Source: Sphyrna mokarran (lineage: Eukaryota). Taken from it: a stretch of 64,000 bases of DNA. The DNA is taken from the NCBI GenBank assembly GCA_024679065.1, contig JAGIQG010000004.1, positions 54,312,001-54,376,000 of the forward strand, read 5' to 3'. A program made the position numbers and the translations under genes. Under the pieces are notes generated by a model. That model saw nothing but the letters and a program-made list of their open reading frames with translations. It was not told the DNA's origin and made no database searches. Positions 2,620 through 62,319 of this stretch are shown here, piece by piece (within the stretch, counting starts at the first letter, position 1; every line of letters begins with the position of its first letter).

Positions 2620-3540
2620 TCAAAAAAAGAGGGAGATGGAGAGCAGAAAATCATGAACCAATTGGCTGAGCACTTGTCATTGGAATAATGCTGGAATGCA
2701 TCAATAAAGAAGTAGTAGTAATAGTAGAGCATTCTTAAACTCATGGTACAACGAAGCAGGAACACTATTTTATGAAAGATACTTTTTGACAAACTTTGAG
2801 GTGTAACAAGCAGGTTGGATAAATGGGAACTAATTGATGGAGTGCATTTGGAATTCTAAAAAGGATTTGATAAATTGGCACATCAAAAATTACTGTATGA
2901 GAATTCAAAGTCTTGATATTAATTCATTAACCTGAATAGAGGATTGACTAACAGGAAACAGAAAGTATGAATAAATCAGAAATAACAAGGCTGGGAATGA
3001 ACTAACTGAATGCCAAAAGGATTGTTGCCGGACCCTCAAGTCTTTGCTCTCTGTATTAACTAATTATTTTGCCGCTAATTTTGCTGATAATATAAAAATA
3101 GAAAGGAAAGCAATCATGAAGAGAGCATGAAAAGAGTATGCAAAATTGTACAATAGTTTAGATGATTGGCTAAAATTTGATAGATACAATATAATATGAG
3201 AAAATATGGGGCTATCCACTTTGGTAGAAAGAATAAAAGAAGGATATTATTTACATGGTCAGAAATTACAGGGCACAAAGGGATCTGGGTAATATTATAC
3301 ATGAATTACAAAAGTATTAATATGTAGTTAGACCAAGTGCTTGGGAATGCTTGGAATATTGCCCTTATTCAAGGGTTGGGGTAAGAAGCAGGAATTGTTA
3401 CAACTGCAAGGACATTAACAAGATAATGCTAGAAGACACCATATAGTTTTGGCCTCCCTATTTAAGGAAGATATTCTTGCACTTGTCAGGTTGGAGAAGG
3501 TACACTAGGTTGATTCCAGGGGTGAAAGGTTCCACTTAGA
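2620..3540 (+). mobile_element. Degenerate CR1 RT fragment
   Basis: Decayed remnants of the DFxKAFDK, FADD and HFGRKN motifs. Confidence 0.65.
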
Positions 3541-6232: not shown

Positions 6233-7389
6233 CATGTGTTTGCTGTCCTAATCTTTCTAGTGATAGAAATTTGTTGAAGGAGTTTTACTGCATATGGTAT
6301 ATGGTACATACTGATGACATTGTGCATTGGTAGTGAAGAGAATGAAATCTAAATAGCCGTGGATAGAGAATTGATGAAGTGTGATGTTTTGTCCTGGATT
6401 GTGTGGACCCCTTTGTTGTAGAAACATTCATCAAGGTTAGTCCATCTCACTCCTGAGTTGTGATTAGATGATGGCAGGAAGGCTTTGAGGAGCTTGAAAC
6501 TGAATTGCCTATTGCAAAATTCCAGTTTCTATTCTGTTCTTGTAACCACATTGTTATATGGCTGGTCCGATTAAATTTCGGTCAATGATAACCCCTAGGT
6601 AATGTCTCTAAATGTCAAGGGGAGGTAGTGTGTTATCCCTTGTTTGATGTGTTCATTTTCTGACATTTCTGTGATATGAATGTTACTTGCCACATATCAA
6701 CACAAATCTGAATATTTTCCAGGTATTGCTGCATATGGACACAGACAATGACAACCTCTCTAAGTGTGGGTGGAGACACTAACGAGCCCAGAAAATACCG
6801 TTCTGGTTTTGGTAATCATACTGAAATTGGAACTGCAACATGGTAATCAATCTTGCACAAATTTCCAGCACATGGCTGATTACGTTCAAAAATATTGCCT
6901 TGGGACTTATGATCAGCCAGGCACCAGTCAGAAGTTCCACTATAGGCTTTCCACTGATGTCTCCCTGCCTGGGCTACTCAAACAATGTAATGGTCTGGGA
7001 GAATTGCCCCGTAATGAGTTAGACAATAGGAATCATCATGTACACAGCAATTCAGGGAGAATGTGCACTGTAATCTTGTTAATGCCAAATAAAGCTTTGC
7101 CTATTCAATCCACATACTAAAAAGAATGTCGTGCTCTACTCTCTATACACTCAGAGATTTAGAACTCTGACCCTTTTTGGTGTTGTACATCTTGTGGTGC
7201 TGCACTTCATTTTGCCAGCACAACATGGTAGAACATAAATCGAATCCTCCTAGCCCGCTGAATCTGGCCCATCACGAATTTCCCAGGCCCTTTTTTAGTA
7301 TAATCTCTTCCATGATGGAAATAGATGTAGGGCTGATGGGTATATTGATTTCAATTTTAGTATGATGAGTAGGCCCAGGATGGTTGACT

Positions 7390-8750
7390 CAGGGCATGCT
7401 AGAATCTTCCCCACTGCCGGGAGAGTTTCTCACCAGCGGGTTTATAACGCTCCCCACCAATGGGAAAAAGACGTGCTCATGCTGCTGATGGGGATGAAGC
7501 CTTAGAGGGCCCCCCTGGGAGGTCAGAAGAGGGGATGCCCCTTGTGTATTGCTAGCTTGGCACTCTGGCACTGCCCATTCAGCACGATTCAATGCCAAGG
7601 AGGTGGGGCCAGAGGAGGAGGGACACACTGGAAAGGCGGAACAAACTGGTAGGGTAAGTGGTGGTGGTTGTTGGGAACACACTGCCACTCTGCAATGGGA
7701 TTAATGGGGAAGGATTGAGGCAGCCATTGGGGCTGACCATGTGGGAAGTATTGGGGCTGGTCTAGGGGGCCGGTCTGGAAGGCTAGCAATCGGTGTGTGG
7801 AGATCACGAAGGCCTGTGATTTGGAGAACTCAGTGCCCATGCATTAATGTACCTACTGACAGATTGGCGCATACGCAGTGGTCCACTGCGCGCTTTGCTG
7901 CCTTACTCTCAGATGGGAATAGGCCCCGTCCCCTAGTTACAAGCATGGATTTTCCCTGCGGCGATTTGTGGAGAACAGAGAACTGAGATTTTACTGGTTT
8001 GATCTGCACATTGATGCCTGGGACATTGGCAATTCCCATTGGGCACCAAGGGGGCGGAGCCCATGGTGAGCGGGACATGAAGAGGTGGGACCTTTTTGGA
8101 AGACCCGAAATGAACAGTCCCATGGTGGGCGGGGACTGCGGGACAGGGCATTTAGTGGCGACACCTGAAGGAGACAGGACCAGTAGGGTGGGGCCTGGAG
8201 GGTTGGGGTCAGACTGGGGGCATGTCAGGGAGATAGAGGAGCTCTGTGGTATACTCTAAAGCTATGACGGTGAAGCCCGCAGCTGCTTTGAAGCTGGATT
8301 CAGTGGGGACGGGAAGGAGGGCTGCTGCACTGTCTGCATGTGATTGGTGGTGGGAGACCGGGGGCAGTACTGGCGGTGTTTTGTGATTGGTGGGAAGGGA
8401 GGAATGGGAGGGCCACTGTGGAATCGGTCTTGGCGGCGAGGCGGAGGCTGTATTTTCAGACAGTGTGGGACTTGTGATTGACCATGGGCCTCTGTGATTG
8501 TGTTGGGGTGTGTGGCGGATGGTGCTGTGTTGATGCTTGACGTTTCTTTGTCGCTGTCAGGCCTCTGCTATTGCAATTGCCTATATGTAGACACACAGAG
8601 ATCTGTGCGTGTGCAATAGCTCCTTCTGCTTCCTGATTAGGCTGGTTGGCAAATTTATTCCTGCTTATAGTGTGTAATAGCTAGAAACAATCTGGCCCAT
8701 TTTATCATACATATTGTGCACAACATTGGGAGTAAAAACTCGCCCCAAAA
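7390..8750. repeat. GC-rich interspersed repeat(s), probably non-autonomous DNA-transposon derived
   Basis: Abrupt GC/G-rich composition resembling 1560-2400 and 59900-60800; no convincing coding frame. Confidence 0.35.
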
Positions 8751-10327
8751 GGGATTTGCAACTCATCTATTTTCACGCTAGCTGGATGGGGTTAGGTTGG
8801 AATTTTACCGTCCCACCCGCCACGGGAATCATAAACTGAATACATGCAGGGATTTACCATTGATGTCAGGTAACTTCGGCAACACAAAAAGAGTACATAA
8901 ATGGCTGTTTACATCTTCTCTTCCCGTTGCCACTTGCTGCCCCATAAATAACCTGCTAAATTCATAGCAGGGAATTGATGATTGTAGCCTTCTGGAATTT
9001 CAAAATCAATATTTTCCATATTTATTGTGCATTTTTCACAAATACATGATAGTTTTATGCTTGAACTCTATAGAAAGACCCTTAGTCTATTGGCATTAGT
9101 AATCTTACCTTTCTGCAGCCTAAACCTTAGTGGACTCAGCCAACTGGCACATATTACAACACCATAGTGAAAACTGCACAACCCTGAATCACAGGCAGAT
9201 GAACATCGGCCAGAATCCTGGTGCTATCTCATTTTTCCTGTTAGATGTCCACGATTTGTCCCTGTCTGAGCTTTGTTCCCTTGGAGTGCAAGGAATCAAT
9301 TTCTTCTTTATTACAGTGGGCACTGCCTGTACTGTTCTGTCCAGCTCATTCCATCTCATCTAGTACAGATTTGGTAAAACAGGTGGGCCACATACTTCAT
9401 TTTCCAAGTTAATTTTGAATAACCACATTACGTTAAATGTAATTGAAAATAATTTATTGAATGAGCCTCTGGTCTATATTTCTGCAGCACTTGGTGCGAA
9501 TGGGAACAAAGTTATGGGGGAAAACAGGATTAGGCTATTGTATTGGATGATCAGCCATGATCGTAATGCATTGTGAAGCGACTCGGAGGGCCAATGCTTC
9601 CTCTTGCTCCTATCTTCTATGTTTCTATGTACTCTAGTGATCTTTCCTCTCTAACAGTAGAACTTGTGTCCCTGTGGAGATTAGCTTGTCTGACTCTCTA
9701 ATCAAAATGGGCCACTGTAAAGAATAATTTTGGAAGCAGCTTCAGTGCATTTTATGGAGTTTCGGGCGCAGAGGCTTTCCTCATCCCTCTCTATCCTGTG
9801 AGTGGAAAGACTCTAATTCAGATAGTATTTACAGCGAATGATTGCTGTCACCTCAGGCAATCGCTTGGTGACAACGGACTTTGAAAGGCAATTGTTAAAT
9901 TTGTTACACAATGGAAATTAATACTCATTTTTTAAAAGTTTAACTGATTGACAGTTTCTTGAAGTTCAAGTGACTCCTCATGAAATTGTATGATACAAAC
10001 CATGCACGCCGCATTTTAAGAATGCTCACGAGTTGAAGTTACAAAATGTCGATGCTACTTGATTGCTAATATCATAAAAAGATCGTCCTGCACATTTGAA
10101 ATCCGGAAGATTTTCAACTTGTCGACAGCTTCAACCTGGTTTTGGAAATCTTGTCATGGATTTGTTCTACAATAGTCCAGCAAGCAATTCCTTCAGGTGT
10201 GCTGTTCTACATTTTAGCCTGGCTGCAATCAATGTAAACAGTAATGAATGTATTTTAAAGTTTATAATCGAAAAGTCTGATCTTGCAATCATAAATATCT
10301 CACAACTGCAAACAGTATTTTAGATTC

Positions 10328-10465
10328 TCAGCTTCTTTCTTTCTTTGTTGAGTTCACTTTAGTATATTTTGCAAGTTTGTTTTGTTTAAGTTTTGATGCG
10401 TCTTTGGAATCAGCAAGCTGCAAGGCGACATTTGTCAGCTTCTTGTCTCCACCTCTTTGTTTAGT
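10328..10465 (-). pseudogene. Terminal-exon paralogue B3, open frame but ITIMs eroded
   Basis: Same acceptor and start as A3 (ctttcacag|ACTAAACAA); TKQRGGDKKLTNVALQLADSKDASKLKQNKLAKYTKVNSTKKERS*; first Tyr replaced by Asn. Confidence 0.75.
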
Positions 10466-11035
10466 CTGTGAAAGTAATATTTAATATCACAGTAAATCCA
10501 TCGTCCAATCATTATTGAGACAATTGACATTTTAACGAAAGACTTATGGAATTTCCTTCCATTAGTTCCAATTTCAGATTGTAATCAGATTTTGGATTGG
10601 CTTCCTTTCCCTTTTCGGCAGCCCTCCCCCAACCTTGTTGAAATTCCATTTGAAATTTCATGCAAAATGAATTCGCCTGTTAATATAGTTCATTGAAGAA
10701 AACAAATGAATTATTTGACTAAAATAGAAAAAGTAATTCCATGCTGCTTTGTTAAGGCTGTTGGGAAAGGTGATAGTACTCAAGATTAATTTAAGGCCCA
10801 ATTGTCTGATCATTGATAGCCGCAGTTATCTCACGGGGTTAGACTCTAGGAGACATTTTTCAATCGCCTTACTGCCATTCCCACTAACCTTCTGATCTCT
10901 GGACTTGAGGCAAAAATGGCAAACTTGTTTGAAATCAGCCGACAGTTCACAGTTGGTAGATTAAGCAAGGGAACTTTCCCATTTCCTACATTTCAGTGTC
11001 CTATCACATAATATTGATGCCATTACAGTAGATGA

Positions 11036-11151
11036 CTAAAGATCTACCTGGGAATATATGATACTTTCCTCTCTCTCCCTGGGGGTCTCCTTTTCCCTGG
11101 TTCAATTTTGATGGTGGAATAGGCCGAGCTATTGTCGGTACCTTTTTTTGT
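11036..11151 (-). pseudogene. ITIM-exon paralogue B2 (1-nt frameshift at a C run)
   Basis: Acceptor attttacag|; TKKGTDNSSAYSTIKIEPGKRRP, then shifted frame REREESIIYSQ|GTAGAT; read-through IIYSQVDL*. Confidence 0.65.
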
Positions 11152-11444
11152 CTGTAAAATAGATATTTTCCACATGTAGTTGAGGAATTTCTTGTTTCGT
11201 AGTTTGGACAAGCATTATTCCAGGCAGACCCGAAAAAGAAACGTGGATAATATTGACTTTGATTTTTGTGTGAAACCGACCACGAGCCCGCAGCCCGATT
11301 TGCATCTCTCCAGATTGCTATTTCCAACCAAGTCAGTAAGCGAAATGCCAATTAATAAGGATTTAATGAAATCTGTCCCATAAAGACAAAACTTTCCCCA
11401 ATCCCCTCAGATTCTGAACAATTAATCTGTTATGTATGGTCATA

Positions 11445-11690
11445 TCGTAGAATCCATATGGTGCCCTTCGGCCTACAGAGTCTGCATCCATCACAATCCC
11501 ACCCAGGTTCTATCCCCTTAACTCTACCTAATCCCCGCTAATCGGCTGACATAAAGGGATAATTCCCTTTATGTAAGAGGAAACCAGAGTCCCCAGAGGA
11601 AACCTAAGCCAATGTGGGGAGAATATGAATGCACAAACTCCACATAGATAGTTACCCGACTGAACCCGGGTACCTGGTGCTGACCACCTA
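11445..11690 (-). mobile_element. HE1/V-SINE-type tRNA-derived SINE
   Basis: Reverse of tgtggagtttg...ttctcccca core and CR1-derived tail. Confidence 0.65.
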
Positions 11691-11707
11691 GTTGAGTATC
11701 TTTCACC

Positions 11708-11835
11708 TCAATCCGTCAGTCCTGCCTGAGAATAGATGGTGTGCTCTTTCTTGTGTTTCGGTTTGGAGGGGCCCTTTTCCTTTCGTAGGCTTGAGTAGCG
11801 TAGGCGTCAATGTTCTCACCCGGCCTTTGTCTAAC
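11708..11835 (-). pseudogene. ITIM-exon paralogue B1 (1-nt frameshift)
   Basis: Acceptor tatttttacag|; VRQRPGENID, then shifted frame LRYSSLRKEKGPSKPKHKKEHTIYSQ|GCAGGA; read-through AGLTD*. Confidence 0.65.
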
Positions 11836-12929
11836 CTGTAAAAATAAGACACAAAATATTGAAAGCGGCGACTCTGCCTCTATAGCGAGCTACTGTCAAT
11901 TCTAATTAATTCTGTCAATGTAAATATGCAGACCGTAAACAATAAAACTAGTTTGCAAGTGCACTCTTTCCCTTTTCGACTATTGTATCCAATATTGAAC
12001 AATAGGGTGGAGAGTATTTGTTGAATCACTTCAAGGGATGTTGGCTTCGCTGGCTAAGCTAACATACATTGACAGTCAATAATTGCACTTAAACCACTCC
12101 AGTCGGTGTCGGGTACGTGTGTTTCTGGTATTTTTAGGGAAGTCCTTCCACGATTCCGACTCAGCGACAGTGAAGAAACTGCAATATTTTTCCAAGCCAG
12201 GGTTTTCATTGATTTAGAGGGGAACTTCAACGTAGTGTTCCTATATATCTGCTTCGATATAGGACGAGTTGGTGCTGCTGGAGAGCCAGATCAGTCGGAA
12301 AGAAAAGCAGAACTTCTTCAGATAGGCATTCCTGGAAGATAAATGGCAGTGAAGTAAACATTAAGATAAAAACAAAATATTGCAATGCTGGAATCTGAAA
12401 CAAAATCAGAAAACACAGGAAAATCTCAGTAGGCCTGACAGCATCTGAGGAGAGAGGATAGAATATTAGCTCAATTCTGTTTCCACTGACGCTCATGATG
12501 TAGAGGTGCCGGCGTTGGATTGGGGTAAACTCAGTAAAGTTTTACAACACCAATTTTAAATCCAACCAATTTATTTGATAGTACTATCAAAGAAATTGGT
12601 TGGATTTAAAATTACAAAGAACAAAGAACAAAACAGCATGGGAAACAGGCCTTTCGGCCCAACGAGCCGCGCCGCCACCCCGATGTTCCCATCTCTACCC
12701 GCGATCCCGGTCCATGTTTATAGATCAGTGGATTTAAAACCAAATTTGAGACAATTTAGGGAGAATTTGTTTTGCCAATTAGCCTAAGAGCACATCTTTG
12801 GGATGTGGGAGGAAACCGGAGCACCGGTTGTGTTGTAAAACTTGACTGAGTCCACTGATGCTGTCAGACCTGCTGAGATTTCCAGCATTTTCTGTTTTTG
12901 TCTCAGATTCCAGCATCTACAGTATTTTA

Positions 12930-13310
12930 CTTTTAGCTTTTGGGCCATATGTTCGAAGCCCTTGTCCTTTTAGATGACAGTGGTCGTGAGTTTGGAAGGT
13001 GCTGTCTACGAAGCCTTAATGCGTTTCTGCAATGTATCTTGCAGATGGTATACACTGCTGCCACTGTATGTCGGTGGTAGAGGAAATTTTCTTTCTGGTT
13101 GGGTTGCCAATCAGACGCCCACTTTGTCCTGGATGGTGTCGAGCTTCTTGAGTGTTGTGGAACTGCTGTCATCCAGGCAAGTGGAAAGAATTCCATCACA
13201 TTCCTCACTTGTGCCTTGTAGATTGTGCACCTGCTTTGGGGAGTCAGGAGGTGAGATACTCGCTGCTAGATTCTTAGCCTCTGACCTGCCCTTGTAGCTA
13301 CAATCTTTAT
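12930..13310 (-). mobile_element. Non-LTR LINE 3' fragment (CR1/L2-group)
   Basis: VMEFFPLAWM...TTLKKLDTIQDK, typical of LINE ORF2 C-termini; related fragments at 5180-6760 and 57180-57660. Confidence 0.6.
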
Positions 13311-13959
13311 GTAAGAACATAATAAACTTAAGAATACAACAACTAGGAACAGGAATAGGCAAGTTAACACCTCTGCCATTCAATACGATCATAGCTGATC
13401 TCATGTCAGCTTCATCTGCACCTTCCTAACCATTCCCCACAACTATTCATCAGAGGGAGCAAACCATGTGACACACTACTAGTTACATCTTGGCGAATAG
13501 AAAAAGACCCATTGTTCCCACTTTCTGTTTTCTGTTGGTTAGTGAATCCTCTATTCAAACTAACATATTACCCCTAACCCCATTTTACTGTCGGTATTAA
13601 TCCTTTGTGTGGCACCTTATCAAATGCATTCTGAAAGTCCAGATATTCTGTACCTATAGAATCTGCTGTAATAATCTCATCTTTGAAGAGTTAGTTAAAC
13701 ATGATTTACTCTTCTTAAAGACATGCAGACTCTGATGGATTGCATTTTGATTTTCCAAAGATACCTTTACTACTTCCTTAATGAATAACATGCTCTTTTG
13801 GTGACCCAATCCAGGTCCCTGCTGCTGTGAGGCAGCCATACTAAGCACTGTCATCATACGTTATGAAAGAGAGCCTGATGTCAGTAGAGGGGAAAAATTC
13901 GAGTCCGATTGTTCAGGTTAAAATAACAATGCTTGGAAAACCGTGGCAGAATTAGACAG

Positions 13960-15270
13960 TGTGCATTTATGAGGGAAAGGATGCTTGACAAATCAACTGG
14001 GATTCTTCAATCATGTATCTGGTAGAGTTGATGATGGGGCTCCAATGGATGTGGTTTATTTCCATTTTCAGAATGGTTTTGATAGTTAAACACATGAGAT
14101 GGATAGGAAATTCATTGGCAGACGTAGAAATAGATCTCTTTCTAAATGGCAGGCAGAGACTCATGTGGTACCACAGGGATCAATGCAAGGACCTAAGTAA
14201 TCACAATTATGTATTAATGAACTTAGATGGAGTCAAGTACAATATATCCACATTTACAGATGAGATGAAGCTGGATGGGAGGATGAGCTGAGTGATGTAG
14301 AATACTTCGTCATTATTAGTTGGATAAGCTGAATGAGGTGGGCAAATATACAGCAGATGCAGTATAATGTGAATAAATATGAGGTTATCCCTTTTGGTAG
14401 CAAAAACGGGAAGGCAGGTTATTATCTGGCTGTAAGTTGAGAAGGAGGAATGGGCAATGTGATCGGGGTGTCCTCCTAACACCCGTCACTGAAAGAAAGG
14501 AAATGGTATGCTGGCCTTAGTGAGAGGATTTGAGTAGCAGAGCTGGAATTAGTTGGCAGTTACAACTTTAATATGCTCCAATGATCCCGTTCTTATTGCT
14601 GACTCTGAAGAGAAACTGAAAGATTTTGGATTGAGTTCAGTGGAAGTGAGAAGGGCTGAGCGTAAATTGTAAAAATGTTTAGCAGTGTCCAAAAAGAAAA
14701 TCAGTGCAACCAAGAAATAAGACAAAGACTGCAGTGGTTAAAGATGCATTTCAAAACTCCAAATTAGCTGTGAAAGCAAAGCTGAGAATTCTGGAATACT
14801 ATAACATAATTGTCATAAGGATTGCTGTAATTATACAAGGTTTTGGTGAGGCCACACCTGGAATATGGTGTGCAGTTTTGGTCTCCTAGTGTGAGGAAGG
14901 ACATTCTTGCTGTACAGGGAGTGCAGCAAAAGTTCACCAGGCTGATTCCTGGGATAGTGGGACTGATGTCTGAGGAGCAGTTGAGGTGGGCAGGATTGTA
15001 TTTGCTGGAGATCAGAAGAATGAGGGGGCAATCTCATAAATGTATAAAATTCTTGCAGGACCTGATGTTGGGGGGAGTCTAGAATCAGGGATTATAGTCC
15101 ACAGATATGGGGTAAATCTTTTTTAAGACTGAAATGAGAAGTAATTTCTTCACGCAGAGAGGGGGGCTTGTGGCATTTAATTTCAGAAAGGATTTGAGGC
15201 CAAAACATGTTGTTCTCAAAAAGGTAGATTAATTCTTGGGCAAAGGGAGATCAAAAAGTGTGGGGAAAAG
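13960..15270 (+). mobile_element. Degenerate CR1 with an RTE-like fragment inserted (~14555-14830)
   Basis: VRPHLEYGVQFWSP...QKFTRLIPG; the internal piece reads VLIADSEEKL and KDAFQ...KLRILEYY. Confidence 0.65.
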
Positions 15271-15351
15271 GTCGGATTGAGTTGGAAGATACGGCACAAT
15301 GGTCAGCACTGCTGCTTCAGTGCCAGGTACAGGTTTCGATTCTGGTGAGTT

Positions 15352-16240
15352 CTATAGAACATAGAACATAGAACATAGAACAATACAGCACAGAACAGGC
15401 CCTTCGGCCTTCGATGTTGTGCCGACCAAAATAAAAAGCAATGCCCCTCCTAACTAAACCATTCCCTTCTCATCCATATACTTATCAACTAACCTCTTAA
15501 ACGCCACCAAACTTGGCGCATCTACAACAGCTGCAGGCAGGGCATTCCACTCCCTAATCACTCTTTGAGTAAAGAACCTACCTCTGATATCCGTCCTATA
15601 ACTCATACCCCTTAATTTAAAGCTGTGTCCCCTCGTGCTAGCTTTCTCCATCCTAGGAAAAAGGCTATCACTGTCCACCCTATCTAAACCTCTAATCATC
15701 TTATATGCTTCAATAAGATCCCCTCTTAGCCGCCTCCTTTCTAACGAAAACAACCTCAAATCCTTCAACCTCTCTTCATAGGACCTGCCCTCCATACCAG
15801 GCAACATCCTGGTAAACCTCCTCTGTACCCTCTCCAATGCCTCCACATCTTTCTTATAATGTGGCGACCAGAACTGCACACAATACTCCAAGTGCGGCCG
15901 CACTAGAGTTTTGTACAGTTGCAACATGATGCTGCGGCTCCTAAATTCAATCCCCCTACCAATAAAAGCTAAGACTCCATAAGCCTTCTTAACAACTTTA
16001 TCCACTTGACTGCCTACTTTCAGGGATCTATTGACACATACACCAAGATCCTTCTGTTCCTCAACACTATTAAGAGCCCTACCATTAGCCCTATACTCTA
16101 CACATTTATTGTTCCTGCCAAAGTGCATTACCTCACACTTTTCCACATTAAACTCCATTTGCCACCTCTCGGCCCAGCTCTGCAACTTGTCCAAGTCACT
16201 CTGTAAACTAAAACACCCCTCTTCACTATCTATCACTATC
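15352..16240 (-). mobile_element. Young 5'-truncated CR1 (HER1-type) inserted into a SINE
   Basis: Open ORF 15454-16245 ([18 protein letters not shown]); (TTCTATG)n tail; SINE halves on both sides. Confidence 0.95.
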
Positions 16241-19200
16241 CACACTATCTATCTGTGGAGTTTGCACAATTTCTCCACATCTGTGGGTTTCCTCCAGATG
16301 CTGCAATAAGCGAAGTTGGATTAGCAATTGTAAAGGCTCAGTTATGAGAATCGGCCTGAAAAAGATGCTCTTTTCAAATGTCCTCCTGCACTGTAAGTGT
16401 TCTATGATCTGCCCATGATACTGAATGGTGTGTTCTGAACTTGCTGTTTTCCTGCCAAGTTTAGGCTACTCTGTTCACTAGCTAAACAATGAGGATAGCT
16501 ATTTTAATAGATGCCAGTTCTGTATTTGTGAGATAGCTTTGTTTCTGCTGGTGTCTAATGATCTGTGTTTGATTACAGCACTGTTTGCAGTATCAAAGAA
16601 TTACAATCTGGTTTCTGCAACCTTATTTGAGCTTTATACAATGCTCCAGATTATAGACCCATCATCTCCAGTCTTCCTCAGCTTTTGAGCAGGTAATAAA
16701 GGAATATAATTCTTGCACACTACTTATTCAGATTTATAGATTGTTTAAAACTTAGAGGGGAAAGCTCAAGAGGGGAATCAGCACTAATTTGTTCTATTAT
16801 TTTTGCATTGGCTTTTTATAGTAGTTGCCTTAACTGCAGACAATAAATGTACCAATTTTGAATCTGATCTACACTGAAGTATTTGGATCCTTGCATCTTA
16901 AAAGTAAGACGGAGAGAATGGGACTAACTGGGAATCTACATAGAATATTGTGACAACACGTAGCATGTTTTTTTTTGTCAACATGATTGCCTTATTTACT
17001 ATCTAATGTGTATTCGAGCAAATTAAACTCTTCTTTCTTTTCCCTACTTACATTAGGGAAATGAGTAGGCCTTTTAACCCTGTAAACCTATTCCATGATT
17101 CAGTGATGTGATGGCAGACCTACGACCGAACTCCAAATACAAGGCATTCTCTCTCATGCCCCATGCTATTTCTTTAAATTTCTATGAAAGGCCTTGTTCT
17201 TGAAATAGTGTGAAACTGAAGAGACATTCTGATTTAGAAACCCTTTTTAAATCATCCAGAATCTTCCTGTAGAAACCCTGCATTAGCAAATTCAGCCCAT
17301 TGTGTCTTGTATGTATGGTTAATTGGATCTTCAGGTGAAAATTTTTGCTTTGTAAATTGCTGCAACTGCCAGTACTTAATGGAATGAGGGGATTTTTGAA
17401 ACTCTCAAACAACAAGGTGAAGTGCATCTTATGAGAGATAAGGATTGAGAAATAGGGTGGGTTGTGTCCAATCTGAACAGGATACAAAGATTAGATTGGT
17501 GAGGAAAAATCCATTGAAGGGGTACTTGTGTGATCAAAAATTATTAAGTTTAATTTTGTGGCCAGTTAATGAACTGTTAATATAAAAATCTCATGGGACT
17601 TTGACTTCTCACAAAAAAAATGATATAGTTTGCCCAGCAACCTGTGGCAATTCACAATTTTGGGAATAGCTCTTCAATATCAAGTTGGTAGCCAGTTTTC
17701 ACATAAGCAGTCTGTAATTGGGTTACATCTGCTGCTCTAGTGCATACAATTGGGCAGCCTGAAAACTAATGCAGCTTTCTTGAAATGATTTAATTAATGC
17801 CTTATAATTAATTGCATTGTTCATATTTAAGAGAAAATCAATTTCTTTACAATAAATGTTTACATTTTCCAATGTATCTCTTTTAAATTCTAGGTTTATT
17901 TTTATTTATAACTGAAATTTATGAATATCTCAGACAATATCATGGTGGCCATCTAAATCCAGTTTCCCTGAACATTGACCATGGCTTCTATCAGCCACAG
18001 ACTTGATCAGTTTTTCAAATCCAACCAATGGTATTTTGTAGCACCTACCCTGATTGGCTGGTACTTCTGTTCAACTCTACAATGAATGAAGACAAAGAAT
18101 TAACTGGCTCATTTTTTTAAAAAGAAGAAATGTTTCTTTCTGCTTGAGTAATTGTTGCATTTTCTACTTTATTAGATGGATAAAAATAACTTTTTTGAGG
18201 GTTTTAATTGTATAGAGAGATTTCACCCTGATCATTTTGACTTTGTAATTGGATGTAGCGCTCAATCTAGTAGGATTGGCAATTCACTGAATGGGTTTTG
18301 TGGCTGAGTTCTGTGATAGAAAATGTTTCACTGCTCCTCTTGCTGACCAACTCAAATCACAAACATATTTAGTTTTGTTTATGATTATATCTGAGAGTCA
18401 TGGGTTGAGATTTTAACTTTCACCTGTTTTATACAAATGAATGCTTTCTGCTCATTCCATGTGATTAAAGTGTGTAAGTAACAATGACTACTTGACTACT
18501 GCTGGTTTGTGGGTCTGTCCAATTTGCCCCAATATCTGCTGAGTATGATTTAGATTGTCTGAGGTATTTTAAGCTTCAGAAAATTGCAATGCCCAGAATC
18601 AGTGGGAACTACAGTAAATGCCAGATTGCAAGCAGTCATAAGGCTATTTGCATATCTTAAGTTTTTATTTAAGAAAACACACACTGAGTCTTAAAACTAT
18701 AAGCAATTTGAACTGCACTAAAATATTGAGGTTAGCCCAAAAATTGTAATTCTGAATGGTAATAAACCAAATGCAGGTCTAGGAGCCTTGTGTTCCCAGT
18801 TGGTGGGAAAATTGTTTATTTATGACTAATTTTGCATGGGAAAGATGTTGAATTCTTTCATAGCAAGAAATCTGGAAGTTCGAATATGAGACTTTTAGAA
18901 TCATTGTTGACTGTAGTAGCTCCAGGCCCACTATAATCTTGGTGATAAGTGAGTCCTTGGCTGTATTATCCACACTTGCATATAGAATCTTGCCTGTCTT
19001 GAATCTGTATGTCTACAGTGTTGCCCATCACCCTGGTAGAATGGAATGTTAGAACATCACCTTTGGCAGATGTAGGATGCAATGAAAAGTGCTGTTGGTA
19101 GGATTGCCGTAATCCTATATAATTAAACTGCACTGAAAACATTGCAATTTATACAATGTTTTGCCTTAAAATTGGTTGGTGCCACGAGAGAATTCTAAGG

Positions 19201-19624
19201 ATAGTAAAGTAAGAATGGAGCCATCTCTAGTGGGAGTGATTTCAAAAAAAAACTTTAGTGTGCAGCACCTGACTTTATATGGTCCTGCTGGCATTTGATA
19301 AGACTATCACTGGTTTTGCTGTAGCTTTGACAACCTAAAAGAACTAAACAGTTGGTTAAACCTTTTGTGGTTTCCGTCCATCTCCGTCTTCTTGGCCCGT
19401 GTTTCTTATCACCTTTCCACCCCCCCAATGCCAAATAAAAATTTAAAACTGATCTCCATTTTCAGCAAAGTAACCCTTTGAAATTTCTTAATCTGTGTCT
19501 CCAATCCCTCTATTCTTAGTTATCGATCTGACCATGGTTCCTGTATCATCTAACTGATAGAAATTAGTTGATGTACAATGTTTATGCACAAGGTTCACTA
19601 ATGTGTTTAGCCAGCTGGCACATC

Positions 19625-19900
19625 TTATATCACTGCATTGGAAATTGCAGTGGTTAGCTCTGCTGTCTGTGCCAGAGACCTACATGTGATTCCTCGCATG
19701 GGTCACTGTGTGTAGTTTGCACATTCTCACAATGTGGGTTTCTTCCAGATGATCCAGTTTTCTTCCACATTCTGCAGATGTGTTGGTAAGGTTGAACATG
19801 CTAAATTGCCCCATAGTGTCAGGGGGTTAGTAGGGCTATGAGAGAGGTCCTGAGTGGAATTGCAATTGGCCACCTTCTGCACTGTAGGAATTCTATGACA
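19625..19900 (+). mobile_element. HE1/V-SINE-type SINE
   Basis: cagtggttagc A box, gtttgcacattctc core, catgctaaattgcccc, attctatga tail. Confidence 0.7.
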
Positions 19901-21086
19901 GCGCAGGTGGTGTCTGTTAGCTAAAATGTTTCCTTGACCTTTGGCTCTTTTGGTTTGACTAACTGAAGTGTACTTCCCTGGGAGCAGCACTAAAATGAAG
20001 CAATTTTTCAGTAATTGCTGTCCATAAAGTATTCTGATTAGCCTAGTTGTGTTTTCTCCTTTTTTAAAAGGTAGGATTATATTGTTGCAGGCAACAGGCT
20101 GATCTGTCCCTCTTTTGAAACTAGATAGCATATTCTTGGGTTCTATTAAATAGTTTGAATTTTGCAGAATGGTGGTGCATTGAAGTTCCCATTATCCTTT
20201 GCCACATTATTGGTGATTACAACACGTTTCCTGTTGCTTCAAACAGAACAAATTTTAAAAAGAAAACTGTTAAGTACAAATATTTGTTTTATTGAAGTTG
20301 AATTGATTGGTACCTAACGCTCCATAAGGAATCTCCAAATCTGATCTCAAACCATGGAAACTCAATTTTAAGAACTATCATAAACTGACATTATAAATCT
20401 ATATGACTTGGTTGATATCGTTTCAAACTTGAGCAAATTTATGATGCGCTACTCAAAGAAATAAAATATTTGCAAAGCCTTCTTGGTATGGAAAAAATCA
20501 CCTGATATTAGACTTGTTTCATTGGATCAGTGACCAATTCTCTTGTTTTACCACCTTAGCTTTGTGGATTCTCACCATTGGTCTGTACTTTAATTGCAAT
20601 AAACGAAACTGTATGGTTAGTGAACAAATATCAGGAGTCCTTGTGACACAGTGGGCACCTGCTTCTGAGGCAGAAGATCTGGGTTCAAGTCTGATCCAGG
20701 AGTTGCTTATCAAGAAATGTTGGTCAAGGAATGATGCTAAATAAGTTGAGTAACTTGCAAATCCTTAATGGACTCCAATGGTAGACAGTAAAAACAGGAG
20801 AAATTTCCACATAATGGTCAGCCATGTGATGGAAATTAATTGAAGCCTCTACTATCACTACCCACTTGGGGTTGAACATAATGCGTGTTATTAGAGCAAC
20901 AGACTCCTTGGAGGGCTAAATAGCTGGTGTCTATCAGACTGGTACCAAAAGTTGGATTAATATCCAGACTGGAGTGGATTCCTGGCTGTGAGGTCAGAGT
21001 GCTGTAGATTAGATCTGCCTTCAGGCACAGTTGGGGAAACAAATACCTGGGTCTACTTCTATAAAAAGCTCAATTTTGAGTTGTGT

Positions 21087-21230
21087 TTAGATTTTCAACT
21101 TCTCTCTCTTTGTCATGTTTATTTCTGCATACTCTACATGTTTGTCTTCCTGTTTAAATTTTGATGCTTTCTTGAAGTGAGCAAGCTGCAGAGTGGCGTA
21201 AGTCAGCTTGTTATCTCCGCGTTGTTTAGT
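21087..21230 (-). CDS. Terminal cytoplasmic exon with two ITIMs (cluster A, exon A3)
   Basis: Acceptor ctttcacag|, phase 0; [47 protein letters not shown]; a minus-strand AATAAA lies at 20293-20288. Confidence 0.85.
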   Translation of the reverse strand, partial: TKQRGDNKLTYATLQLAHFKKASKFKQEDKHVEYAEINMTKREKLKI

Positions 21231-24200
21231 CTGTGAAAGCAATATGTAATATTTGTTAACGCATCAGCTCATTATTTGCGGCAATCAGGTTTTTAAAAAG
21301 TTTTCTTTCATTTCAAGTCACAGTTAATAAGAACACAGCCCATCAAGTTTAAAGAATTCTCTTTGGAGCAATTTAGTCCCCTTTTCTCTTTTGCTAGATT
21401 TTTGAAATTATTGGTTTCTGTTTCCCTTTATCCCTGGCAGCCCACAAACACATCTCCAACCTGTTCTTAATCTCCACTCCTCCCCCAAGTCCTTGCCCAA
21501 AAACCACATTCTTGTACCATCAGTTAATGGAAACACCACAACGAATCTTTTCTCCAAAGAGAGAAATGCTAGCTTTTCCATGCGTAGAACCATTTTACAT
21601 TACCCCTGTAGGGCTCACACATATAAATGTGTGCTGACCTGAGCAGGCTGCAAAATCTGTGGCCTAACCAAAACTTGATAAAGTTTTAATATTAAAACTA
21701 TGGAATCCATCTATGTGTGCACTAATTATCCAGACCCCAAACCCTCTCTATCCTATAACCCTGTGTCTTCAGTATCCCTAGCTTACATAATCTACTTTTC
21801 ATGTTTTACTAACCACTCTCTTACAATGTCCTGCACTACCACCTTCAATGATTGATATACATAGAATCCCAGCTTCCAGTTCTGCACTCTGTTTAGAACT
21901 GTGCCAGTACATCTACGGTGTTTATCCCTATCCTTCCTGCCAAAGTCCAGCATCTTGTGTTTTTAGATTGCATTTTGCCACTAATCTGCCTATTCCGCTA
22001 TTTGTGTCCTGAAGCAGCCCATTAAAACTCATCCTTTGTTAGCTCCTCCAAATTTGGTATCATTGAGAATTGTTTGTATTGGTTTTATTTTGGGTCTCTC
22101 TCCTCTTCAAAGTCTTTCCCCAAATCGTATTAGTATTCTGTTTCAATCTTAACGTCTCCTGCTATTATAACCAATTTAAGACAGCAGATGCATACTTCAA
22201 TTAAAATAGCAGACAAATGAATTTCATACTTGCAGACTGATGGTTACTTGGATGCTGTGATAAGCTACATACGGGGTCATGTGGTAGGAATGCAGGTCGA
22301 TGCACCATGCTGTGCAGAGTATTCCATAAACTGTTTTGTTCTAATACTTGGTCACCAGTTATTGGAATCCCCAAAGAATATTTGAATTGCTGGTATTACA
22401 ATTGGGGCTTAAGACTGAATTTTGCATGAGCCCTGCCAATTTATCTGATCTATCTACTCTCTGGGTCAAGGTTTCAAGATCCTATTTACTCACTGGGTTC
22501 CTCTCCCCTCTTCCCCCATCCCCCAATCTCTGGGTCATGAGGCAAAAATGAATGCTAGTTGAGATCAGTCAACACCATCAGTTAGTTGATTTTAAATGTG
22601 GGGCCTTGCCAATCACTGCAGCTAAGTGTAGTACCACTTAACAATGACAGTGTTTCAATTAATGATCTGAGCTGTACTGGAAATATACAATGCTCTTCTC
22701 TATCTGTATGTGTTTGCATTTTTCCTAGTGCTGGTTTCGACAGGGGCGTTGTTATGTGAGTTTCTTATTTTGTGGTTTAGAACATCATCATGGCCAACCC
22801 CAAAAAGGAAACAGAGTCCAGTGTCCTTTTTATGTTGCCTCTGATTGCTTTTTGCAAATAAATCCGTTGGAGATATGCTGGTGCTTTATTGGACAGAATA
22901 AAATAAGTCCTAAGTCAAACCACCCTCTGTGACAACAGAGTATTGATCTTGGATGAAAACAGTTTGGATATTAATTGGCCCTACCTGGGAATAGGTGGAG
23001 TGCTCTGCCTCATGTCTCCGTTTGGAGAATCCATTCTCATATTAGTACCATCAGTTAATTTAGCTGTATGCAAACAGAATCATTTCTTTTTACTACATTT
23101 CTCTTCTCTGACCATATTTGTTCCTGCACTTTTATGTTTGTGTGGTCTGCTCCCGTCAAATTGTGGCTATTATCACTCATATCTTTAACCTGCACTATTG
23201 CCTTGTTCTTTTTTTCAATTCTCAGAACGAGTCACCTTCCTAATACCTTTGATTATGATACAAAATGTATTAACAAGCATCTGGGCATATAGGAACCTCC
23301 TATTTTTGGAACAAGTTGAATTATGAAAATGTTATCAATTGGTAGAATATGTCACAATAAATACTAATACTTATCTTGCCCTTATAAATAATAGAATCCC
23401 TACAGTGTACAAAGAGGCCATTCTGCCCATCAAGTCTACACTGAATCTCAACATCTTTCTCAGGCCCATCCCACTGCCTACCCTCATAACCCTACACATT
23501 TACCTCACTAATCCCCCTAACTTACATGTTTTGGGATACTAAGAGATAATTTAACATGGCCAGTTCACCTACCCAGCACATTTTTGGACTCTGGGTGGTA
23601 ACTGGACCACCCAGAAGAAATCCACACAGATAGGGGGAGAATGTGCACGCTACACACATTGACCCAAAGCTTGAATCGATCCGAAGTCCCTGGTGATATA
23701 AGACACCACTGTGCTCACCACTGTTTCACCCTTAATAATAAAAGCACGTGGGCAAAAAAGAAGGAATTGACGCTACAACATTATAAATCTCTTTGGTGTA
23801 TCATACCCCATTCTGGGAACAACATTATTGGGAGTGTTAGAAAGTAGGCGTAGGTTCAAGTGATCTCAATCTGTATTGCTGAATATTAGAAATAAGGTAT
23901 AGATTTATGTGAGTTTACTTTAATGTTTCTGTGTAAGAAAGGATAAAACTCCGATAGATTATTGTTAAACAAAGGTGCATACGTGCATGGGGGTGAGGAG
24001 AGGGGAGGCGTTGGTTTCATTTAAAACTGTTTCTATTGTGCTTAGAGAGTTTACAGTATGAAAAGCAAGCATGAGAAAGATTGAGCTTTTGTTTACCAAC
24101 TAGGCCATCTTTAGGGGAAAAAAGCCCTTGTGTTTTTAATTTAACTGAACCCATGGCAGATAGGTCTTAGCAGCTAGAGAGACAACAGCTCACTCAGTTC

Positions 24201-27200
24201 TGCCAGAAAGATGACAGTGAAGTAAATGCAAGTCCCAGAAACTAAAAAACAGTTAGTTCTAGAAACCAGAGAATGGAAAGAGATGTTGCAGGAAACTGAA
24301 GTTTTGAGAACAAGACTGAAAAAACTGAACAATTGTACTATTTATTGAAGTTAAGGACAGAGCTGAAAAGTACAGCTTAGTGAGAAACCAAACGTCTGAA
24401 GTAATCATAAGATTGGTGATATCTTGTTGCAGCCTGTGAAGCAAAAAGTGCTTGGCTGTTCAAGACAAATAAGTTACTGAAAGGATAGTTGGAAATCCTG
24501 GAAATGAATCCTTTCGAGAAACAGTTGAGGGAAAGCATGATTTGAAAGAAGGTTTGAAGGCATGCCTTTTTGAGAGTGATGACGTGCAGTTGCTGGCATT
24601 GGACTAGGGTAGACACAGTAAGTAGTCTCACAACACCTGGTTAAAGTCCAACAGGTTTAATTGGTAGCAGGAGCTGCGGAGCTTTTGGAATACTACCTCT
24701 TTATCAGGTGAGTTTCTCCTGATGAAGGAGCAGCATTCTGAAAGCTCGTGCTACCAAATAAATCTGTTGGACTTTAATCTGTTGTTGTGAGACTATTTAC
24801 TTCCCGAAAATGGAGTCTAAAAAGACTCGTGTAAATGGTAGAGTCCAGTGATGTTAGTTGGCTCACAATATAATAAGCATCTGGGAGAATGAGGAAAAAA
24901 CAAAGAAGTTTGATTAGGAGCATCAGAGTTCGTGTTATCTGACCACAGTTAGCCTGTTGCATTACAAGGATTGTGCATTTATTGAGAATATTCTAATCTA
25001 AGATGTATTTTGCAACCTGCATCATCCTTAAGATTTCCTGTTGCTAAAAGCTAATTGACAGTCCAGTGATTCATTTCATCCACATTTTCTAAAATAAAAT
25101 GTAAAAGTTACTGTCTTTTACTTTAACTTTAACTTTACTTTAACTTTACTAATATTGATTGGAATAGCTATAGCTCTAGCTCGTTAGAGGGGTCAGTTTT
25201 TATACAAAGTGTGCAGGAAAGTTTTTTGACTCAGTATGTAGATAGGCCAACTAGAGGTGAGGTTACATTGGATTTGGTGCTGGGCAATGAGCCAGACCAG
25301 CTGTTAGGCTTGGAAGTTGGTGAACATTTTGGTGATTGTGACCACAATTCGGTTACGTTCACCTTAGTGATGGATAGGGATAGTCATGAAGCTGGGGGCA
25401 GTAGTTATAGCTGGGGGAAGGAAATTATGAGGCCATAAGGAGGGAATTAGGGTGCATAGGTTGGACTAGGAAACTACAGGGACTGGGAACATCTGAAATG
25501 TGGAGCTTATTCAAGGGGCAGCTGCTGCGAGTCCTTGATAAGTATGTCCCTGTCAGGCAAGGAGGAAATGGTCGAGTAAAGGAACCTTGGTGTACGAAAA
25601 AAGTAAATTCGCTGGTTAAAAGGAAAAAAGAGGCTTATGTCAGGATGAGGCTTGAAGGCTCGGTTAGTGCAATGGATAGCTATAGATTAGCCAGGAGGGA
25701 GCTAAAGAGTGAGTTGAGGAGAGCTAAGAGGGGACACGAGAAGACTTTGGCTGATAGGATTAAGGAGAATCCTAAAGCTTTCTTTAGATATGTTAAGAAT
25801 AGAAGATTGGTTAGGGCAAGATTAGGGCCAGTCATAGACAGCAGTGGGAAGTTGTGCGTGGAGCCTGAAGAGATTGGAGAGGCACTGAACAAATATTTCT
25901 CTTCGGTATTCACGCAGGGAGATGTAAATGTAGTTGTGGAGAACACTGAGGTACAGGGTTGCAAACTGGAAAGTATTGAAGTAGATAGGGAGGATGTGCT
26001 AGATATTCTTGAGGGTTTGAAGTTGGATAAGTCCCCTGGGCCGGACGGGATTTAGCCTAGGATTCTCTGGGAGGCAAGAGAGGCGATTGCAGAGCCTCTG
26101 GCTCTGATCTTCAGGTCGTCGTTGGTTACAGGTATAGTTCTGGAAGACTGGAGGATAGCGAATGTGGTCCCATTGTTCAAGAAAGGGAAGAGAGACTTTC
26201 CAAGGAATTATAGGCCAGTGAGTCTTACTTCTGTTGTGGGCAAAGTATTGGAGAGAATTATTAGGGATAGGATTTATAGTTATTTAGAGAGAAATGAATT
26301 GATTGGGGATAGTCAGCATGGTTTTGTGAAGGGTAGGTCGTGCCTTACTAACCTTATTGAGTTTTTTGAAAAAGTGACCAAAGAGGTGGATGGGGGTAAG
26401 GCGGTTGATGTGGTATATATGGACTTTAGTAAGGCGTTCGATAAGGTGGCCCATGGAAGGCTTCTGCAGAAAATGCAGATGTATGGGATAGAGGGTGATT
26501 TAGCTAATTGGATTAGGAATTGGCTAGCAGATAGAAGACAGAGGGTGGTGGTTGATGGGAGATATTCATCGTGGAGTTCGGTGACAAGTGGTGTACCTCA
26601 GGGGTCTGTTTTGGGGCCCCTGCTGTTTGTAATTTTTATAAATGATCTGGATGAGGGTATTGAAGGATGGATTAGTAAATTTGCAGATGACACTAAAGTC
26701 GGTGGAGTGGTAGATAGTGAAGAGGGGTGTTATAGTTTGCAGAGAGACTTGGACAAGTTGCAGAGCTGGGCCGAGAGGTGGCAAATGGAGTTTAATGTGG
26801 AAAAGTGAGAGGTAATGCACTTTGGCAGGAATAATAAATGTGTAGAGTATAGGGCTAATGGTAGGATTCTTAATAGTGTTGATGAACAGAGGGATCTTGG
26901 TGTATTTGTGCATAGATCCCTGAAAGTAGGCAGTCAAGTCGATAAGGTTGTTAAGAAGGCATATGGAGTCTTAGCTTTTATTGGTAGGGGGATTGAATTT
27001 CGGAGCCGCAACGTCATGTTGCAACTGTACAAAACTCTAGTGCGGCCGCACTTGGAGTATTGTGTGCAGTTCTGGTCCCCACATTATAAGAAAGATGTGG
27101 AGGCATTGGAGAGGGTACAGAGGAGGTTTACCAGGATGTTGCCTGGTATGGAGGGCAGGCCTTATGAGGAGAGGCTGAGGGATTTGAGGTTGTTTTCGTT

Positions 27201-30200
27201 AGAAAGGAGGCGGCTAAGAGGGGACCTTATCGAAACATATAAGATGATTAGAGGTTTAGATAGGGTGGACAGTGATAGCCTTTTTCCTAGGATGGAGAAA
27301 GCTAGCACGAGGGGACACAGCTTTAAATTAAGGGGTGATAGTTATAGGACGGATATCAGAGGTAGGTTCTTTACCCAGAGGGTGGTTAGGGAGTGGAATG
27401 CCCTGCCTGCGGCAGTTGTAGATGCGCCAAGTTTGGTGGCGTTTAAGAGTTTAGTTGATAAGTTTATGGAAGAGAAGGGAATGGTTTAGTTTGGAGGCTC
27501 ATTGCTTTTTTCATAATTGGTCGGCGCAACATTGAAGGCTGAAGGGCCTGTTCTGCACTATAATGTTCTATGTTCTATGTCTTTTGAGTGAGGGTCTATT
27601 CTGGGACCTTCTCTTCATCAACTGGATTGTAACAGAAGGACGCAAGGCTTGGAAGCAGTTGTCGAAGAGATTTACTAGAATCGTACTGGAGGGAAGGACT
27701 TACATTAGAGAGACTAGAGAACGTATTATTATTCTCCTCACAACAGAGGAGGATAAAGTGTGTTCAAAATTTGGAGAGATTTTGACGAGTAGATAAGGGA
27801 GAGTGTTTTCAATCGTGGTTGGTTCAATGTCCAAGAGACAGAGATTTCGGATCATCAAAACCATCAGAGATAGATGAGCGTTGTTGTCTGGAAAACACTT
27901 CCTGAAAACGTGGGAGTGGGGTTGGCAGGTGCAGATTCCCTTGAATAAAAAAAAATGAAGGACCATATGAAATGAGCGGGGAATTAGGCTAATTGAATAA
28001 TTATCTCAACTCAGTGGCACAGAGAGAATAGCCTCCTTTCGGGGTTGCTCCTTATTTCTTTCGATGCACTTCAGTTCTTCGCTCCTGATCTTCACCCATG
28101 CAGAGGTGGGTGGGCAGGGAGAAGGAGGACCTAACCAAGTTGGCTGTTAAGAGGTCCAGGCAGCCTATAGTCGAGTTGGTCGTCTGCTCCATCACTGTGG
28201 CTACGTTCACAGCAAGCTGGATTTGGAGAGGGAGCAGGCAATGTCTACTGATGCATTTCAGGTCAATGGGAGCCCCTGGAATGCATGATTGCGCCCTGGT
28301 ACTGACATTATGGTTCAGTTAATTAAGTTCTTTTGCCTTTTGTTTTAGTTACAATGTGACATTGGGCGCTATTATCCTCTGTCCTTTTGATTAACACAGT
28401 AAGAAGTTCACAACATTAGGTTAAAGTCTAACAGGTTTATTTGTAGCAAACACCACCAGCTTTCAGAAATGGCTGTTCCTTCGTCAGGTGGGTGGGAGTT
28501 CAACCCCAGTCCAACACCAGCATCTCCATATCATGACTTTTGATTAATAGTAACCTTTCATTCTTTTTTAAGATTAAAAAAATGAATTAACTACTTATCA
28601 GGTTGATTGAAATATTTATTTCCATTCCTCCTTATTCCCTCTTTTTGGAGTATAAAAACATTATCTTCTTACCGTCTCATCACTCTGACCAGCTTCCAGG
28701 GAATTTCTTTTAACACCTGGAGAAAAGAAGAAATTGAACTTGAGTAACTTTCTAAATGTAAGCAAAGTCAACAACATGCTTTCCATTCTGAACACTTTTA
28801 CTGCCAAAAGGAAGGAGCCTTGAAAATTGAAACATTCCATTGTGTGATCTACCCCCAATGGAACACACTGCCTTTAGCGTGATAATCATAAACATGTGAT
28901 AAGTCGCTAAATTGCGATTGAAATATGACCAGAGGGAGACGTAAAACAGTCTGCCAGTTCCATATCAGCCGTTTTACATTGCCACAGAAAATTACTTAAG
29001 ATTGTTTACACTACAAGGTCCTGATATTTTAACAAATGCGGAACGTTAAGAAGGTGTACAAATTAATTACAGTTCGAATGGGAAAATTGAACATTCGCAT
29101 TTCAAAATTGATTTGCGTTGCCATATTCAACTCTCAATCACATAACGCTCTTGAGGCATCAACTTCGTTCTTTAAAGATGCACAGGGTGCTCTTTATTCC
29201 CTTTAATGAAGCACTATTCACCTGCCGTTTCTGTCTTAACAGTTTAATTGGGCATAACAAAATAAAAGTTAGCGGTGAAATAAGAAAACTTCTTACCAGC
29301 TGAAGCTTTTAATTTGAGTCTCGTCAAAATAATTATCAACAGTACAACAGCCAGTGCGCCACTTGCACATCCGAAAATGAGCGGAAATTGCTTTCCTGAA
29401 ATAGCGACAGGATCAACAAATGATTGAAATAAGCAACTTTCGAACACAGCGAGATTTTTACACCATCTTGGGTCTGGCGCGGGAGGACGCGGTGCAATGT
29501 TGTCTTTCCTGAAATTGTGTCCATTTACTCTGTGAGGGGACAATTTTATTTCTATAGCAGTAGCTATAAAAGGATCATAACGGGATCACAACAACAGTAA
29601 CGCAATTGATGGAGGAAACTAATCTATAAAGGCGCAGGAAATTTCTCTCTAGACCTGAGGGCTTTTCGGTCAAAGTAAAGGGGCTTATATTTGTGCCACA
29701 CCAGACAGACGCGCACCGGCTACAAGGAATAGCAAAGCTTTTCATTCTTCGGCACTGACAACTAGAGAAAACACACTGCAGCTCTTAGTAGGTAACAAGA
29801 ACAGCTTGCATTTAACATTCTAAAATGCTCAAACGCAGCGTTATCAAACACAGTCAAACCACATGAATAATATTATGACAGCTGGAGGTAGAGTTGAGGG
29901 AGCGTCGAAAATGAGAGTCGGAAAAGCGGGGATACTCAAGAGCGAGAGTTGAATTCAGATAGCGGAAGCCATTATGCGGACATAACGATTTTACCTTACA
30001 TGCAATTCAAATATTCAGGATATAAAAGCGACTACTAAAACTGATCATTTTTATATGTACGTCTATTTCACTTGGCAAGAATTTGACGAGGCATAAGCAC
30101 ATAAATTAGAGCAACATAGGAAAGTTAAAGCACAGAAGGAGGCCAATCGGCTCATCTTGTCCATGCCAGTTCGTGGACACGAAGTACCCTTTCTAATTTC

Positions 30201-62315: not shown

Positions 62316-62319
62316 AGTA

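Follow-up and report, generated by a model that had tools for sequence, protein, structure and literature searches.

A V-C1 inhibitory receptor gene of Sphyrna mokarran, its broken tail exons and a probable orphan tail from a neighbouring gene copy

An A-type receptor gene and its six tail cassettes

The DNA analyzed here, referred to as the window, is a stretch of 64,000 nucleotides (nt) from Sphyrna mokarran (assembly GCA_024679065.1, contig JAGIQG010000004.1, positions 54,312,001 to 54,376,000). It contains one open inhibitory receptor gene with a V domain, a C1 domain and a transmembrane (TM) segment, located on the minus strand and classed as A-type. The leader exon (36359..36413) starts with an ATG at 36413 and ends in phase 1, and is followed by a V exon (35875..36180) which matches Pfam V-set and carries its J-like end, GTGTQLTV, within the same exon. 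A C1 exon (30783..31079; Pfam C1-set), a TM exon with a hydrophobic stretch without a charged residue (29297..29395) and a first cytoplasmic exon of 44 nt, CY1 (28673..28716), which leads from phase 1 to phase 0, complete the upstream part. The terminal exon, A3 (21087..21230), is an intact exon of the type termed X3 below and encodes two canonical immunoreceptor tyrosine-based inhibitory motifs (ITIMs), LTYATL and VEYAEI, with tyrosines 23 residues apart, before a TAA stop. Joined in the order leader-V-C1-TM-CY1-A3, the six exons have GT-AG introns and encode 314 residues and a stop in a single uninterrupted frame. In a motif scan, the 3 kb that follow A3 contained six poly(A)-like hexamers; the candidates, on the motif only, are ATTAAA at 20594 and AATAAA at 20293 (20288..20594, minus strand).

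The original prediction had described this tail as one array of six homologous cassettes downstream of one TM exon, in two triplets (A1 to A3 and B1 to B3), sharing a plan with two tyrosine motifs. All ten peptide motifs were found on the minus strand at the predicted positions. By themselves they mean little, because the three minus-strand frames of the window hold 152 ITIM-like hexamers. ITIM and immunoreceptor tyrosine-based switch motif (ITSM) classes were scored by the definitions in the available text of PMC12151841, where an ITIM is (S/I/V/L)xYxx(I/V/L). The shared plan was recovered as two motifs in one open frame only in A3; acceptor and open frame were present together in two of six cassettes, both tyrosines were kept in one, and five of six were damaged, A3 being spared. 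As predicted, A3, B1, B2 and B3 have an AG acceptor and begin in phase 0, fitting the CY1 donor at 28673. Counted in frame, A3 has two ITIMs and B2 has one, located before its frameshift, with none in A1, A2, B1 or B3.

The damage was read by comparison with paralogues in the surrounding cluster, obtained by mapping the window exons on 54.162-54.536 Mb (31 stretches beside the window) and named by position. A1 (22985..23043, minus strand) is the 3' remnant of a tail exon, X1, whose acceptor and first ITIM were deleted; the deletion has its junction at 23043/23042, measures about 2.8-3.6 kb relative to gene G194 and is the same in G288. The AG at 23063 lies in what was originally more distant intron sequence, located about 3.6 kb further upstream in G194, and reading from 23063 meets a TAA at codon 3. 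A2 (22677..22773, minus strand) is a pseudo-exon homologous to tail exon X2, without an acceptor AG, with 7-nt and 1-nt deletions and with its first tyrosine gone; by eye, with the window copy aligned, the X2 acceptor position has no AG in any of the five A-type genes. In the other triplet, also on the minus strand, B1 (11726..11835) corresponds to X1 and is 110 nt long, a 1-nt deletion against 111 nt in the intact paralogue, with a GC donor; its phase-0 frame reads DAYATQ, and LRYSSL and TIYSQ sit in another frame preceded by two stops. B2 (11048..11151) corresponds to X2 and has 104 nt against 105, again a 1-nt deletion, and its SAYSTI and IIYSQV do not share a frame. B3 (10328..10465) corresponds to X3 and keeps acceptor and frame; its first tyrosine is changed to Asn (LTNVAL), leaving no canonical ITIM. 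The closing V of both STYSQV and IIYSQV is the GT donor of an intron and lies outside the exon.

When the cassettes were compared directly as DNA, only A3-B3 and A1-B1 among 15 pairs stood clearly above random window segments, the other pairs being marginal or null. It is by way of the intact paralogues that homology of the cassettes is established. Seven joins from the CY1 donor were tested. Only CY1-A3 gave two canonical ITIMs, and the other six ended early, shifted the frame or yielded no more than one ITIM: the A1 join leads to a stop, those to B1 and B2 to frameshifts and that to B3 to no ITIM. It is likely that the window gene splices CY1 directly to A3, skipping A1 and A2.

Further features lie within or beside this gene. 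The CY1 intron contains a long interspersed nuclear element (LINE)-type insertion (25120..27578, plus strand) missing at that site in paralogues G194, G413 and G475, and running antisense to the receptor gene. Young LINE-type reverse-transcriptase elements occur in the window at 25120-27578, 44517-46952, 15366-16237 and 62286-64000, with some copies 92-95% identical. In the intron before the V exon, positions 36256-36181 are open and hydrophobic for at least 26 codons, and the homologous stretch is an alternative N-terminus in the Scyliorhinus RefSeq isoform P0002.

Triplet B and the receptor cluster

In searches of the species' own genome A3 had 12 matches and the V exon 43, the majority on the window's contig. 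The cluster map holds five A-type genes (G475, G413, the window gene, G288 and G194), two B-type genes with all 5' exons (G516 and G230) and four B-type fragments (at 54.449, 54.388 and 54.270 Mb, and that of the window), with 51-54% identity between A-type and B-type V domains. G516 is complete, with leader, V, C1, TM, CY1 and tail exons X1 (111 nt), X2 (105 nt) and X3 (138 nt), all three in phase 0 and open. In G230, CY1 contains a stop and the last two tail exons, X2 and X3, are gone.

Triplet B lies within a 5'-truncated B-type fragment (6595..13782, minus strand) which is collinear with G516 (C993:54503391-54508885) at 81-84% identity. The collinearity takes in intron, X1, X2, X3 and 3' flank and ends at 13782, inside the CY1-X1 intron. 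G516 lies about 180 kb away. Exon mapping found no V or C1 between A3 and the B tail in all four fragment units, and no leader, V, C1 or TM was found in the triplet B unit of the window. Two of the four fragments extend up to a damaged TM and CY1; the other two, including that of the window, stop at the same lower point. The six cassettes are the tail ends of two gene copies and not one array behind one TM exon. The collinearity marks triplet B as a tail orphaned by the decay of a neighbouring gene, an option that the original prediction had itself raised. Across the four fragments there are 12 tail exons, of which ten have a frameshift, a stop or a lost acceptor; B3 of the window, with its Tyr-to-Asn change, and an X1 at 54.385 Mb with a GC donor are the two that stay open. 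Exon and intron identities of the B tail were 0.85/0.86, 0.84/0.88, 0.93/0.95 and 0.86/0.91, so that exons were at or below introns in four of four comparisons; against G516 X3, B3 gave a pN/pS of 0.91. The deletion of B1 is shared with the 54.270 Mb fragment, and the deletion of B2 and the Tyr-to-Asn change with the 54.388 Mb fragment, so the window fragment looks mosaic.

Taken together, it is very probable that triplet B comes from a neighbouring gene copy of which a headless 3' fragment is left, that the broken exons A1 and A2 belong to the window gene itself, and that this gene likely joins CY1 to A3, giving a V-C1-TM receptor with two ITIMs. Exon anatomy, breaks, collinearity and partner genes were observed directly in the DNA. 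Several points weigh against this reading. The conservation test is weak: its positive control, A3, stood above its flanks in four of four comparisons, significantly in only one, and intact exons had pN/pS values of 0.59-1.02 over few sites, so that live and dead copies were not separated. B3 retains its acceptor and open frame, and the sequence permits a rare CY1-B3 splice across 18 kb. The RefSeq proteins used for comparison below are computed models, and among the joints listed from a relative's contigs (21 further joints unlisted) no tail junction was present. The one-base deletions might be assembly errors; this is unlikely for B1 and B2 because each recurs in another unit.

Elsewhere in the cluster, X1 is intact in G475, G413 and G194. 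G288 (C993:54279500-54289240) has an intact leader, V, C1 and TM; CY1 was removed by a 4.2-kb deletion, and a join from its TM exon (phase 1) to X3 (phase 0) is out of frame. Its product might be a decoy without a tail, or the gene a pseudogene. On the plus strand, at 54.88-55.03 Mb, lie four V-C1 paralogues; each has an Arg where the TM starts, with a stop in the same frame shortly after. Their V domains are 84-96% identical to the closest inhibitory gene, two pairing with A-type genes (88% and 94%) and two with G516 (94% and 96%), and we infer that they are activating partners.

The repeated unit of the cluster consists of one A-type gene and one B-type gene or its remnant. A-type genes have lost X2, the window copy and G288 additionally half of X1, and the B-type gene is whole only in G516. 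The pattern reads as ordinary birth-and-death in a paired-receptor cluster. Compared across cluster units, as the original prediction had proposed, cassette integrity was uneven, with X1 intact in G475, G413, G194 and G516, X2 in G516, and most fragment exons broken as described.

Other observations were made in and around the cluster. Window positions 1-3904 and 57891-62315 form a direct duplication with 88% identity, marking a cluster-unit period of about 58 kb. At 42452-43555 there is a degenerate palindrome of 1.1 kb with six nested inverted arms (77-92%), the outer arms resembling a short interspersed nuclear element (SINE) repeat; it is possibly a fold-back element or one like a miniature inverted-repeat transposable element (MITE). 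G413 holds a partial C1 duplicate (C993:54410086-54410152), the first 67 nt with acceptor, at a distance of 390 nt on the upstream side of its true C1 exon. A third, more distant subfamily is represented by V and C1 exons inside and beside the cluster (L022:1615-1920 and L043:7218-7476). A second cluster about 8.5 Mb off (C993:62.79-63.27 Mb) contains V-C1 genes with X3-like double-ITIM terminal exons; a tblastn search of three tail-bearing genes there (62.8-63.3 Mb) gave no clear match to X1 or X2.

The three-exon tail and competing explanations

Every intact X1, X2 or X3 contains a pair of tyrosines with a spacing of 22-23 residues. At the protein level their likeness was reached by 0-25 of 5000 shuffles in all nine pairs tested, a test in which the exons had been picked for their motifs; at the DNA level likeness was mostly marginal. 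The predicted building of the tail by exon multiplication is therefore plausible for the ancestral tail, whose exons are weakly alike. Among RefSeq models, Mustelus XP_078066556.1 has CY1-X1-X3, Heterodontus XP_067906045.1 and XP_067905822.1 have CY1-X1-X2-X3 and XP_067905823.1 has CY1-X3. Since the same exons are modelled in Mustelus and Heterodontus, which belong to separate shark orders, the three-exon tail, as modelled, is older than the split of these orders. The ancestor would have had X1, X2 and X3 with two tyrosines each, likely from an old exon duplication and likely spliced in series. Spliced in this way, G516 would carry six tyrosines, G475, G413 and G194 four, and the window gene two, so that tail length appears to vary between genes (6, 4 or 2 tyrosines) and not demonstrably within one. 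The original prediction had held that the other cassettes would be inert relics if all transcripts joined 28673 only to 21230 and no paralogue used them. The window copies do look like relics, but paralogues keep X1 and X2 intact, and the X1 and X2 copies of the window are most likely relics of exons that other genes use.

Recorded RNA data for the leader-V stretch were not found in the records searched; two putative RNA runs from one study, derived from a relative, matched 6% of leader-V words. The relative's contigs were aligned to the G413 tail at 80% likeness, and putative RNA contigs which were 85-90% alike covered the X1 bin of G413 and X3 with its 3' flank. They gave no cover on the X2 pseudo-exon or the X1 read-through zone of G413, gaps that were not counted as evidence. 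Splicing, expression and signalling of the window gene are what we infer from its DNA.

The original prediction also offered the six cassettes as alternative or serial modules by which one gene tunes inhibitory strength. Four of six do begin in phase 0 behind an AG, and the cassettes are homologous to functional-looking paralogue exons. With five of them damaged, three belonging to another gene with which B is collinear down to introns and 3' flank, and six of seven CY1 joins unproductive or short of a second ITIM, the chance that this holds for the window gene is close to nil; the stop within A3 moreover means that B cannot follow A3 serially. A Dscam-like array of alternative or mutually exclusive cassettes is likewise not supported, with acceptor and frame intact in two of six, B collinear with another gene and exon identity no higher than intron identity in four of four. 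It might be argued that B3 alone was captured as a distal alternative last exon, giving the same ectodomain without a canonical ITIM and acting as a decoy or weak brake. Its AG acceptor, phase 0 and open frame of 45 residues, its place as one of two open exons among the 12 fragment exons and the AATAAA hexamers downstream of it would suit such a role. We regard this as very unlikely, as the Tyr-to-Asn change is also present in the copy at 54.383 Mb, which itself has no acceptor and has a new stop, B3 is conserved no better than introns, and the six hexamers already noted lie within 3 kb 3' of A3.

A different possibility concerns X1 in the intact paralogues. In X1 and X2 the donor splits the second motif behind YxQ, and T comes from the exon that follows, so that the spliced motif is non-canonical; reading X1 through its donor completes TxYxxV and meets a stop five residues on in all four intact genes examined. 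X1 could thus be a composite exon, in which onward splicing gives a long tail with the second motif disabled (YxQ|T) and read-through gives a short ITIM+ITSM tail, a switch that the window gene would have lost. An AATAAA lies 95-129 nt beyond the X1 donor in five of five A-type units, whereas none lies within 260 nt in five of five B-type units. Any phase-0 GT donor yields V on read-through, chance rates are 23% for a stop within five codons and 13% for an AATAAA in 150 nt, and stop and hexamer, which may descend from a terminal exon of the ancestor, are still there in copies whose X1 is dead. All five distinct RefSeq tails with X1 that were examined splice onward, and phase-0 introns are known to divide tyrosine motifs, as described for immunoreceptor tyrosine-based activation motifs (ITAMs) in CEACAMs (Yxx|L) in the available text of PMC5112662. 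A composite X1 is on balance improbable, and the read-through form could either be left over from an origin as a terminal exon or exist as a genuine isoform. It is similarly doubtful that shark V-C1 inhibitory receptors set braking strength by a modular three-exon tail (6, 4 and 2 tyrosines through exon loss), with the X1 donor inside an ITSM, splicing destroying that motif, and read-through with intronic polyadenylation yielding a short PD-1-like ITIM+ITSM tail. If true, one splice choice at X1 would swap the motif class.

Relation to known receptors and meaning

Recruitment of SHP-1 and SHP-2 by paired phosphotyrosine motifs is established. The window product would act in the manner of SIRP-alpha or PD-1, with ligand binding leading to tyrosine phosphorylation and to SHP-1/SHP-2 recruitment by its paired motifs, and inhibition would be opposed by the Arg-TM short-tailed partners with matching V domains.

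On its exon plan the window gene is a member of the chondrichthyan V-C1 receptor family modelled in RefSeq and labelled 'tyrosine-protein phosphatase non-receptor type substrate 1-like'. It has the features of this 'SHPS-1-like' family, namely leader, single VJ-type V, one C1, TM, CY1 and an X3-type terminal exon, together with linked short-tailed partners that have a charged TM residue and a near-identical V. Models of Mustelus asterias (XP_078066556.1), Heterodontus francisci (XP_067906043.1/45.1 and XP_067905821-23.1) and Scyliorhinus canicula (XP_038662024-27.1) share with it the leader-V-C1-TM-CY1 plan, the TM sequence type and tail exons of X1, X2 and X3 type. Identity to the Mustelus models is 73% for V, 80% for C1 and 83% for A3, and the Scyliorhinus models include a short-tailed Arg-TM form. 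Unlike these models, the window copy is without intact X1 and X2 and has an orphan B-type tail after it, a cluster decay that is invisible in protein models. Literature searches returned no paper on the tail of this shark receptor family.

A search of PDB sequences placed UrIg2 best (E 1e-16), titin second and SIRP-alpha (2wng) third (E 3.5e-14), with B7-H6 at 5e-9. The likeness to the SIRP family, with inhibitory SIRP-alpha and activating SIRP-beta, lies in a V plus C1-set ectodomain, a multi-tyrosine tail and paired forms. SIRP-beta1 carries a Lys in its TM, whereas the shark activating partners have an Arg near the TM start. SIRP-alpha has two IgC1 domains according to the available text of PMC12324903; unlike that V-C1-C1 plan the window gene has one V and one C1, and because of this single C1 it is probably best not filed under SIRP proper. 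With an unsplit V exon that has a J-like end and precedes C1, the gene also recalls B7-H6 and the non-rearranging VJ-C1 genes UrIg, PRARP and NKp30, genes discussed in PMC10751288, the available text of which mentions neither an ITIM tail nor a paired cluster for this group.

As clusters, KIR and LILR are birth-and-death paired receptors, and the Xenopus FcR-like cluster offers the same likeness. The Xenopus CEACAM cluster is alike in that inhibitory genes stand in tandem with activating ones, their ligand-binding domains match closely, and truncated copies and mosaic units occur, as far as the available text of PMC5112662 describes them. All these differ from the shark receptors in protein family and domain plan.

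Where immune-receptor clusters evolve fast, headless gene fragments and dead exons are commonplace and have little significance in themselves, and both the receptor family and its three-exon tail were already present in RefSeq models. What remains of use is the map of a paired-receptor cluster that has been little studied in sharks, with inhibitory genes whose similar ectodomains are joined to tails of differing predicted length. Genes with six, four and two tyrosines would form a natural series for relating SHP-1/SHP-2 signalling in cartilaginous fish to the number and spacing of the motifs.

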